64,000 nt of DNA from Stegostoma tigrinum. Its lineage: Eukaryota. Position 1 is the first letter of the stretch, and each line of letters begins with the position of its first letter. The notes under the pieces were generated by a model. The model searched no databases. It saw nothing but the letters and a program-made list of their open reading frames with translations, and had not been told where the DNA came from. Location: NCBI RefSeq assembly GCF_030684315.1, contig NC_081391.1, positions 15,291,342 through 15,355,341 on the forward strand. Direction: 5' to 3'. Both the position numbers and the translations under genes were made by a program. This document shows, in pieces, positions 48,693 through 52,731 of this stretch.

Positions 48693-48925
48693 AACTGCGG
48701 ATGCTGTAAGTCAGAGACTAAAAATAGAAGTTGCTGAAAAAACTCAGTAGGTCTGGCAGCATCTGTGGAGAGAAATCAGAGTTAATGTTTGGGTTTGAAT
48801 GACCCTTCCTCAGAACTGGGAGGGGTCTGAGGAAGGGTCACTTGACCCAAAACGTTAACTCTGATTTCTCTCCACAGGTGCAGCCAGACCTACTGAGTTT
48901 TTTCAGCAACTTCTATTTTTGTCTC
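48693..48925. mobile_element. Palindromic Penelope-derived element with a decayed hammerhead core
   Basis: Arms of ~100 bp (~48715-48814 and ~48826-48925). ctgaggaagggtcacttgacccAAAAcgttaact shows the core GAAA mutated. Confidence 0.75.
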
Positions 48926-49191
48926 TTTCCCCACCCCATCCCTAAATTCTAGAGGACAATTAAAAGCCAATTACATTGCTCTAGGCTTGAGTCACTAAAA
49001 GCTACACCAGGTGAAGATCACAGATTCCTTCCCCAGCAGATATTATTGATTTTTACTTTATGCCTGGTTCCTTCCCCCACACATCCTCCACTCCTTTAAG
49101 AGGCAGTAGATGTGGACTGTGCCTGTCTAGGTTGTGTGGTGCAAGTTGGGTGAGAGCTGGAGGTGAAGGAGATCAATCAGGATTTCTCCCC

Positions 49192-49444
49192 TTACTTCTT
49201 TTCCACCAATCTGTGCATTTGGAGCTTCCTGCACCTGGCAAAAAGTGAGATTAGGCTCCTCCGCCGACGTTTTCCGTAGCCATTGGGGTCATCTGTACTT
49301 TTTGGGGGACTTGGCTCCTTCCCTTTAGGTCCCAGCTGGTAGAGTCTATAGGCCAGGTTGAGAGTGTTGCAGATGCCCAGGAAGCAGCGCGAGGGCTTGT
49401 ATTTGTTGTCGGGGCCACGTTTAACTCTACCTTTTGGCACTGTA
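49192..49444 (-). CDS. adm5: Adrenomedullin-family (AM5-like) precursor, last coding exon, encoding the mature peptide
   Basis: Branch point ACTAAC plus a T-rich tract and CAG acceptor (phase 2). Encodes TVPKG-RVKR-GPDNKYKPSRCFLGICNTLNLAYRLYQLGPKGKEPSPPKSTDDPNGY-G-KRRRR-SLISLFARCRKLQMHRLVEKK*: a 6-residue Cys ring, an NLAxxLYQxG helix and a P-x-G-Y-G-K-R amidation site. The family call is strong; the paralog symbol is less certain. Confidence 0.9.
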
Positions 49445-50678
49445 CTGGAATTCAAACCAAACCAAAACAAAAAGCAGTCTGTTAGTTACCAGCCATGAAT
49501 CCAATTGGACAAGAGGCCATTCATCCCACTGTGCTTGTGCTGATCATTTTGAAAGAGCTTCCCAATTTACAAAACTCAGCCCTGCAGTCCCGTCTCTCTT
49601 TCTTCTTTTAAGATTCTTCCTAAGACATGCTTTTCTGATGAAACCTTTGCTCCTAATATCTTATGAAAGCTGTCAAACTATTAACTGGTTATCAACCATG
49701 TAAAATACCTTGGGATATTTTACTCCATGAAATGTGCTGCATAAATGCAACATGTTATGCCTGTCCTTTTCCACTGATTCCCCCCACAGCCATAGAGTTA
49801 TAGAAATGTACAGCACAGAAACAGATCCTTCAGTCCAACTCACCCGTGCCAACCAGATATCCTAAATTAATCTAGCCCCGTTTGTCAGCATTTGGCCCAT
49901 ATCCTTCTAAATCCTTCCTATTCATGTACCCATTCCAGAAGCCTTTTAAATGTTGTAATTGCACCAGCTTTCCCCACCTTCTCTGGCAGCTCATTTCATA
50001 CATGCACCACCCTCTGCTTGAAAAAGTTGGTTCCTTTCAAATACCTGCCCCTCTCACCTTTCTATGCCCTCTAGTTTTGGACTTCCCTAACCTGGGGAAA
50101 AGTCTTTTGATATTCACCCTTTCAATGTTCCTCATGATTTTATAATTTTTGTAAGGTCACCCCTCAGCCTCTGACATTCCTCAAAATTGTTTCCCTGATA
50201 TTGCTGAAAAGAGAGATGTGTTGCCTAAATGCTTGATCATTTGCTTATCAGGACAAATGCAAGAATGCCAAATGTCAAATAAACACAACTTACACTCGTC
50301 AAATAAAGGATGCCAATTCTTTGGCAGTTGAACTACGATTGGCCAAAGCATTGTCATGGAGAAAGCAACAGCAAATTATATTTCTTCCTATGCCACCAGG
50401 AAATTTAAAAAAAAAGCAAGGTTTGCAACACACTCCTTTAGTTTGTGAATTATTTCATATGTCGGAACCCACACTCTGTAAACAGCAGGCTGTTTTACTG
50501 TGATGGCCTCACACCTGTTAATATTCTGATTTAGTGCCAATTTTCTAGGCAGGGTAACCAGTGACCAAAGTGGTGTAGGAGTGTGGCCCATCAGAGAATC
50601 AGGTGCAGGACCTTCTCCCTTCCCCAGTTGAACACCACACTCGTACTCACAAAACTAAGAAGGGAGCTCTACAGGGTA

Positions 50679-51326
50679 ATAAAATGTGAGGCTGGATGAA
50701 CACAGCAGGCCAAGCAGCATCTCAGGAGCACAAAAGCTGACGTTTCGGGCCTAGACCCTTCATCAGAGAGGGGGATGGGGGGAGGGAACTGGAATAAATA
50801 GGGAGAGAGGGGGAGGCGGACCGAAGATGGAGAGTAAAGAAGATAGGTGGAGAGGGTGTAGGTGGGGAGGTAGGGAGGGGATAGGTCAGTCCAGGGAAGA
50901 CGGACAGGTCAAGGAGGTGGGATGAGGTTAGTAGGTAGCTGGGGGTGCGGCTTGGGGTGGGAGGAAGGGATGGGTGAGAGGAAGAACCGGTTAGGTTCCT
51001 TCCTCCCACCCCAAGCCGCACCCCCAGCTACCTACTAACCTCATCCCACCTCCTTGACCTGTCCGTCTTCCCTGGACTGACCTATCCCCTCCCTACCTCC
51101 CCACCTACACCCTCTCCACCTATCTTCTTTACTCTCCATCTTCGGTCCGCCTCCCCCTCTCTCCCTATTTATTCCAGTTCCCTCCCCCCATCCCCCTCTC
51201 TGATGAAGGGTCTAGGCCCGAAACGTCAGCTTTTGTGCTCCTGAGATGCTGCTTGGCCTGCTGTGTTCATCCAGCCTCACATTTTATTATCTTGGAATCT
51301 CCAGCATCTGCAGTTCCCATTATCTC
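50679..51326. mobile_element. Young Penelope pLTR insertion in inverted (head-to-head) form, within the last intron of the adrenomedullin gene
   Basis: Arms 50677-50968 and 50998-51289 are reverse complements. 14-bp TSD agctctacagggta at 50665-50678 and 51327-51340. Confidence 0.95.
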
Positions 51327-51680
51327 AGCTCTACAGGGTAGCTTCCTTGGCTCATTAATAACATCATGTTCTAAGCCCACAGCCTCTACCACAGAGAAAG
51401 AAAGGGAAACATGGGAATACAGCACCTACAATGTCCCATTAAAGCCATACATCTTCCTGACTTGGAAATGTATTGCTGTTCCTTCAATCTAGCTGGTTCA
51501 AAATTCTGACTGTCCTTCCCTGACAGCAATGAGGGCTTGCCTGTACACCACAGATTCAAGTGTTTCAAAAAGGTGGCTCACCACTGCCTTCTCAAAAGGG
51601 GAATAGGGATGGCTAACAAATTTTGGCACAGCCAGCAATCCCCACATACGCCAAACGAATATTAAAGAACTACAAAATAC

Positions 51681-51860
51681 CTGTCATTGATGCTTCCCTC
51701 CCTGTTCTCCAATTTAGAATCCAGGAAACCTGTAGCAGAGTCAGATGCAGAGGTGATTTGGGACTGTGGGACACTCTTTACCTGTGGCTCCAAAAGCTTC
51801 ACGTTGGAATTTTGCAGATTTTGAAGAAATAACTGGAAAGCAGGTGAGGGACCTGGGTTT
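51681..51860 (-). CDS. adm5: Adrenomedullin-family precursor, middle coding exon (propeptide)
   Basis: Acceptor tttctttgtccctccccAG and donor GACAG|GTATTT. 180 nt, phase 2/2, open in the required frame (NPGPSPAFQLFLQNLQ...EGSIND). Confidence 0.85.
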
Positions 51861-52645: not shown

Positions 52646-52731
52646 CTTTTGGTTCTGGCCAGCGCCTGTGTTTCAACAAGGACGCCCATGTGGAAATATA
52701 ACATTGCGACGAGCACAAACACCACTGTCAT
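52646..52731 (-). CDS. adm5: Adrenomedullin-family precursor, first coding exon (signal peptide)
   Basis: Acceptor ttttcAG (exon starts 52742), ATG at 52731, hydrophobic MTVVFVLVAMLYFHMGVLVETQALARTK, donor AAAG|GTAAGA (phase 2). The spliced ORF is 519 nt, 172 aa. Confidence 0.88.

Follow-up and report, generated by a model that had tools for sequence, protein, structure and literature searches.

The Thr directly before the second Cys of the disulfide ring is treated as the activation switch of the CGRP and adrenomedullin (AM) family; the few natural members known to have lost it are duplicated copies confined to particular lineages, and their activity is doubtful. The hydroxyl of this Thr bonds the His of TM5 of the receptor directly. 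Nothing on this contact was found in the available text of PMC4882435, PMC11982234, or a bioRxiv preprint. Structure–activity data, all of them for human CGRP at human receptors, show that the Ser6 analogue is more than 10-fold and the Ala6 analogue approximately 100-fold less potent, that Cys6-CGRP has approximately 5-fold lower affinity and loses all efficacy, making it a competitive antagonist, and that Asp6- and Lys6-CGRP are weak antagonists (PMC3904261). Replacement of Thr20 in AM is cited in the same paper as lowering potency, and Val6-CGRP, the closest analogue to an Ile peptide, is cited there, second-hand, as inactive; little pathway bias is reported among the CGRP analogues. An earlier note on the DNA described here had called this Thr important for activation, with which the weakened or silent Ala6, Ser6, and Cys6 peptides agree. 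The main text of PMC3904261 makes no mention of Ile at position 6, and the literature searched yielded no functional test of an Ile analogue or of a receptor from any shark.

Natural family members without the Thr are given in PMC3904261 as equine CGRP-1, CRSP-2, CRSP-3, and the AM4 of two pufferfish, agonism being doubted in these cases; porcine CRSP-2 and CRSP-3 are cited as giving no cAMP at CLR or CTR. For adrenomedullin 5 (AM5), the porcine peptide raised cAMP far less than AM did, whichever CLR-RAMP pair was used, with comparable cardiovascular effects, and the authors of that work surmised another receptor (PMC3259696, citing Takei). Pufferfish AM5, on the other hand, is recognised by CLR1-RAMP3 (PMC6283891). 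Shark AM5 is absent from the 2013 list of exceptions in PMC3904261, and no description of the ring change reported here was found in the literature searched, although such a sequence may be shown by Wong and Takei 2009, whose subject is the adrenomedullins of chondrichthyans, or in the alignments that supplement PMC3904261.

The hormone gene of Stegostoma tigrinum

In the window, which is the whole 64,000-nucleotide stretch of Stegostoma tigrinum DNA that was analysed, a hormone gene is present on the minus strand as three coding exons with GT-AG introns. Its 519-nt open reading frame encodes a 172-aa prepro-hormone identical to RefSeq XP_048377214.1 (pro-adrenomedullin-like, Stegostoma tigrinum). 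Coding exon 1 (52646..52731, minus strand) contains the start codon and ends at a GT donor, matching residues 1-29 of P0001, and its hydrophobic N-terminus is, on visual inspection, a putative signal peptide. Coding exon 2 (51681..51860, minus strand) encodes the pro-region and is joined to exon 3 in contigs of two sequencing runs (X5 and X6). Coding exon 3 (49192..49444, minus strand) encodes the cleavage site, mature peptide, amidation signal, C-terminal extension, and stop, and scores 27.7 bits against the Pfam PF00214 profile (curated cut-off 22.3); an atlas comparison gave a family-level lead only (score 0.88). In intron 2, window positions 50680-51330 contain pieces of a high-copy repeat, partly in opposite orientation and with very high contig depth, which look like a common SINE.

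Processing signals predicted from the sequence flank the mature peptide. Before it is RVKR (49417..49428, minus strand), a predicted furin/prohormone-convertase site, which we take to have this role from knowledge of the family, and after it is Y-G-KRRRR, in which the amide-donor Gly and polybasic cleavage site occupy 49258..49275 (minus strand). The predicted mature AM5 peptide between them is 47 residues long (49276..49416, minus strand) and identical in four carpet-shark genera. Its six-residue ring, CFLGIC (49369..49386, minus strand; the disulfide is presumed), has one of the two lengths, six or seven residues, expected in the calcitonin/CGRP family. It is read from the minus strand at 49386-49369 as TGC TTC CTG GGC ATC TGC, with the Ile codon ATC (49372..49374, minus strand) immediately preceding that of the second Cys and corresponding to AM Thr20 and CGRP Thr6. 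The earlier note had reported this codon, and re-reading of the minus strand and of the spliced open reading frame confirms it. When the exon is aligned with the human AM2 and AM chains in PDB, the shark Ile falls on their Thr. Nearly all of the family has Thr directly before the second Cys and the Stegostoma gene has Ile; the peptide is not filed here, on its sequence, as a canonical CLR/CTR agonist.

An explanation by sequencing error, a private variant, or a decaying pseudogene has in its favour that ATC is one transition from ACC and that AM5 is described as absent from rodents and as carrying a frameshift in human and chimpanzee, yet it is extremely improbable. Four of the 24 listed sequencing runs were compared with the locus. 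In runs X1 and X3 (samples S1 and S2 of study P1, which is possibly the source of the assembly itself), 931-nt contigs cover 48900-49821 with no differences. Run X5 (sample S3, study P2) has a 554-nt contig in which 51681-51860 is followed directly by 49255-49444, again with no differences; since it joins exons 2 and 3, the transcript is spliced and includes the Ile codon. Exons 2 and 3 are spliced likewise in run X6, from a second organism, which differs from Stegostoma at 26 positions across 48904-49444, none of the 23 listed being in the Ile codon. Assembly error is therefore ruled out, the contigs of three samples, taken from two studies, all having an unchanged ATC. A private variant is ruled out by the presence of Ile in five other genera, and a pseudogene by the open reading frame, the splicing, and the purifying selection on the mature peptide described below, in line with the earlier view that the gene is not a pseudogene.

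It is very probable that the gene is the AM5 orthologue, and it is filed as such. In the more careful of two trees, built from 33 selected precursors, seven elasmobranch and ten bony-vertebrate rows, one of the latter named Adrenomedullin 5 by its source, are on the same side of a branch with support of 99/94, and a quick tree of 99 rows supports the AM5 grouping at 92. Orthology with AM1 was considered and rejected, the AU test rejecting the joining of the elasmobranch rows to AM1 (p = 0.015); another AM gene sits on the CGRP/calcitonin contig, C20. The free tree also separates the elasmobranch rows from AM2/intermedin, although the AU test does not reject this union (p = 0.25), and AM5 is favoured over AM2 because of the gene position beside a CPT1-type gene. 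The CPT1-type exons are approximately 61 kb 3′ on the same strand, the stretch between being unannotated, and PRMT and AP2A genes are on the same contig, 7 Mb off. This fits the place expected of AM5, next to Cpt1c in a block of the 19q13 type, and a link between adm and cpt1c has been reported in alligator and anole (PMC5608299). As Cpt1a and Cpt1c are reported in elasmobranchs, with Cpt1b lost (PMC4589379), the CPT1-type neighbour is presumably Cpt1c. A crude motif scan of the 200 kb upstream gave nothing convincing for pax or rcn3 neighbours.

Searches of this genome identified amylin, the CGRP/calcitonin locus, a second CGRP-like gene, and one other adrenomedullin in addition to the AM5 gene, the names of these other paralogues being our reading of the sequences. 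The ring Thr is kept in all five of the other family peptides found, calcitonin and amylin included. No AM2-type gene turned up in these searches, which miss weak exons. The adrenomedullin on C20 has an AM2-like ring and helix, whereas the precursor tree places the skate counterpart of this gene beside AM1 (93/83). The second CGRP-like gene (L003, G000:C50:22678341-22678475) shares a contig with AM5 and lies close to PRMT and AP2A, apart from the CGRP/calcitonin locus on C20; it is possibly an old whole-genome-duplication copy.

The ring residue across sharks and selection on the peptide

None of the seven galeomorph orthologues, which represent three orders, has Thr at this position. Six have Ile (Stegostoma, Hemiscyllium, Chiloscyllium, Rhincodon, Cetorhinus, and Mustelus) and one, Scyliorhinus torazame, has Leu. 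A profile search returned 81 further proteins, from which one unrelated 4132-aa match was dropped, and all 80 of the remaining adrenomedullin-family rings have Thr, bearing out the statement in the earlier note that this residue is highly conserved across the family. Likewise, Thr is present in all 24 bony-vertebrate AM5-clade rows and in the nearest relatives, the four AM5 rows from a sawshark, an electric ray, and two skate copies. The comparison with orthologues that had been proposed thus places the change in galeomorphs, within a sample that has one squalomorph species, no horn sharks or chimaeras by name, and no mammalian AM5 identified among the rows. Since the seven galeomorph rows are related, the simplest account of them is a single ancestral event rather than seven: one Thr-to-Ile transition on the galeomorph stem would have been followed by Ile-to-Leu in a catshark. 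The ring residue may also serve as a galeomorph shark marker. A commercially available primate AM5 peptide has Val here, which, if confirmed, would be a precedent within AM5.

Other positions of the peptide changed in the same sharks. At AM position 24 (49360..49362, minus strand), i+4 from the Ile, Leu is present in all seven galeomorphs, this column being Gln or His in 74 of the 80 other rings and Leu in one. At AM position 47 (49291..49293, minus strand; counted back from the amidated residue), all seven have Asp, as does one of the 80 others, and at position 22 they have Asn or Arg, the other 28 AM5 rows all having Gln. The Leu24, Asn/Arg22, and Asp47 changes could compensate for the loss of the Thr, or could weaken binding so that there would be no antagonism at natural concentrations. 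The earlier note had described the residue and its processing context without the AM5 identity, the fixation across three orders, the Leu24 and Asp47 changes, or the published exceptions (CRSP-2/3, equine CGRP-1, and pufferfish AM4), and was to this extent incomplete.

Ring position 5, which is normally Gly, Ala, or Ser (PMC3904261), has the expected small residue in galeomorphs (Gly, 7 of 7), as it does in the bony-vertebrate AM5 clade (Gly, 24 of 24) and in the sawshark (Ala; Pristiophorus, P0008). In batoid AM5 (Narcine and Rhinoraja; P0009, P0010, and P0011), the ring Thr is kept and position 5 is Thr, not Gly, in all three rows; rays seem, from these rows, to have altered the agonism motif independently, at the neighbouring position. 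The two Rhinoraja records are on contigs of equal length, possibly reflecting a tandem duplication.

Between shark orders the mature peptide does vary. Within carpet sharks, across four genera, none of the 47 mature-peptide columns varies compared with 25 of the 125 columns outside (Fisher p = 2e-4). At the nucleotide level, among the 23 of 26 differences listed for X6 across 48904-49444, those in the mature peptide are four silent and no replacement changes; there is one silent change in the amide-donor Gly, and behind it one silent and three replacement codons. This pattern indicates that the peptide is being kept, rather than decaying. A role that needs no receptor, for example as a cationic antimicrobial peptide, might also retain it; such a role is mentioned in PMC3904261 as a suggestion for the Thr-less pufferfish AM4, and the shark peptide has a net charge of +3 and added hydrophobic residues. 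The net charges of other family members range from +1 to +6, however, so that the shark value does not stand out, and invariance of all 47 residues would fit a receptor partner better, making this explanation very unlikely.

Receptors and the probable action of the peptide

This genome has CLR on contig C9, CTR on C2, and three RAMP genes. The earlier note had suggested that the Ile peptide may have co-evolved with a divergent shark CLR. Of the eight CLR positions named in PMC5609567 as having the largest signalling effects, seven (His295, Ile298, Leu302, Asn305, Leu345, Phe349, and His374) are the same as in mammals in the three galeomorph CLRs compared, those of Chiloscyllium, Mustelus, and this genome, and the eighth, 348, is Gln, as it is in 62 of 91 rows among the matches listed. 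These 91 rows are those of at least 400 aa from 120 listed of 342 matches, with numbering anchored on the mammalian TM5 His. Across positions 30-400 there are 18 columns in which Chiloscyllium and Mustelus agree with each other and fewer than 10 % of the other 89 listed rows agree with them; none of the 18, among the matches listed, is a galeomorph-only change at a signalling residue of TM5-TM7. The nearest is 352, which is Val in galeomorphs and also in coelacanth, the AM5-clade peptide of which has Thr, and galeomorph CLR has a few differences in ECL1. Co-evolution of CLR with the Ile peptide was therefore not found, since the signalling residues named in PMC5609567 are kept in all three galeomorphs, and this part of the earlier suggestion is not upheld. 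As the other family peptides in the genome keep Thr, the receptors remain tuned to Thr ligands.

At CLR position 291 (L076:7000-7070, G000:C9), Val is found in this genome and in Chiloscyllium, and Leu in 88 of the 91 rows among the matches listed, Mustelus included; judging from these rows, Val291, close to the upper end of TM5, is a change of the carpet sharks. The TM5 exon of shark CTR (L083:7169-7243, G000:C2, ~85.93 Mb) encodes His-Ala-Pro, compared with His-Gly-Pro in human CTR and most CLR rows, and the Ala-for-Gly after the TM5 His is a candidate for compensation.

It is conceivable that the peptide is a full agonist at a shark receptor, with loss of the hydroxyl offset by second-site changes in the peptide (Leu24, one helical turn away) or by a shark CTR-RAMP or CLR-RAMP pair. 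At i and i+4, Ile20 and Leu24 each put a hydrophobic residue in place of a polar one, and the two are fixed together in all seven galeomorphs; the His-Ala-Pro of shark CTR, Val352 of galeomorph CLR, and the differences in ECL1 could be read in the same way. Against this, the CLR core is unchanged, Val352 is shared with the coelacanth and its Thr-bearing peptide, shark calcitonin and amylin keep Thr, and in CGRP even Ser and Val fail to replace Thr (PMC3904261). Full agonism is therefore considered unlikely.

Likewise, the peptide may act through a receptor other than CLR-RAMP, such as the AM5 receptor surmised for mammals, in which case the Thr would be dispensable and the rest of the peptide under selection. 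The weak cAMP response and comparable cardiovascular effects of porcine AM5 (PMC3259696) are consistent with this, as is the departure of batoid AM5 at ring position 5, by which two elasmobranch lines have altered the CLR-activating motif. The mammalian receptor remains hypothetical, however, and pufferfish AM5 uses CLR1-RAMP3 (PMC6283891); the conservation of Thr in all of the bony-vertebrate AM5-clade rows and the intact ring and predicted amidated C-terminus of the shark peptide also argue for CLR-RAMP. Action elsewhere is thus an outcome that we do not expect, without dismissing it.

The best explanation, with about an even chance of being correct, is that the peptide is a retained AM5 ligand that docks on CLR-RAMP and activates it weakly, as anything from a partial agonist to an antagonist, tempering the Thr-bearing CGRP and AM. 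It would be secreted, cleaved at RVKR and KRRRR, and amidated at its Tyr, and would bind through the retained helix and the C-terminal D-P-x-G-Y-amide. Ile would keep the beta-branched packing of Thr without the hydroxyl, weakening the step from the ring to TM5 and TM6 that drives Gs coupling, and the Thr-less state may have been kept by selection for low efficacy. The peptide would then be a partial agonist of, or competitive brake on, the receptor of the shark's own Thr-bearing CGRP and adrenomedullin. The earlier note had proposed a weak or biased agonist or a natural antagonist; weak agonism or antagonism stands as the best reading and bias does not, given the little pathway selectivity among CGRP analogues in PMC3904261. 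A stronger version of the weak-ligand explanation is a dedicated endogenous CGRP/adrenomedullin receptor antagonist in galeomorphs, full-length, ring-intact, and amidated, which would bind well without signal and would have been retained by selection in all three orders, the gene having been damped separately in rays; this is doubtful.

Significance and comparison with known systems

Here the Thr has been lost in a single-copy, spliced gene under purifying selection, in three shark orders, with CLR unchanged. If the peptide is a partial agonist or antagonist, it would be a built-in brake on CGRP/adrenomedullin signalling. If it is a full agonist, it would reveal a way of activating the receptor in which the hydroxyl is not needed, and if it is silent at CLR but active in tissues, it would offer a selective means of probing the receptor surmised for mammalian AM5.

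The closest known system is bony-vertebrate AM5, with which the shark gene shares its clade (99/94), its position beside a CPT1-type gene, the ring C-x-L-G-x-C, and a C-terminal D-P-x-G/S-Y/F-amide, Asp48 and Pro49 being present in all 24 bony-vertebrate rows and in all seven galeomorphs. It differs in that the galeomorphs have Ile or Leu at position 20, Leu24, Asn or Arg at position 22, and Asp47, whereas all 24 bony-vertebrate rows have Thr20 and Gln22. CRSP-2, CRSP-3, and equine CGRP-1 are, like shark AM5, natural members without the ring Thr; they are described as lineage-restricted tandem derivatives of the CGRP locus, whereas shark AM5 is single-copy and fixed across three orders. The AM4 of Takifugu and Tetraodon is also an adrenomedullin without the ring Thr, although it is described as a teleost-genome-duplication copy of AM1, which keeps the Thr in other fish, and is therefore a different paralogue with an independent loss. 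The synthetic CGRP analogues with Ala, Ser, Cys, or Val at position 6 are changed at the same residue and are reported to be weak agonists, inactive, or antagonists; unlike shark AM5, they are man-made single changes at human receptors.
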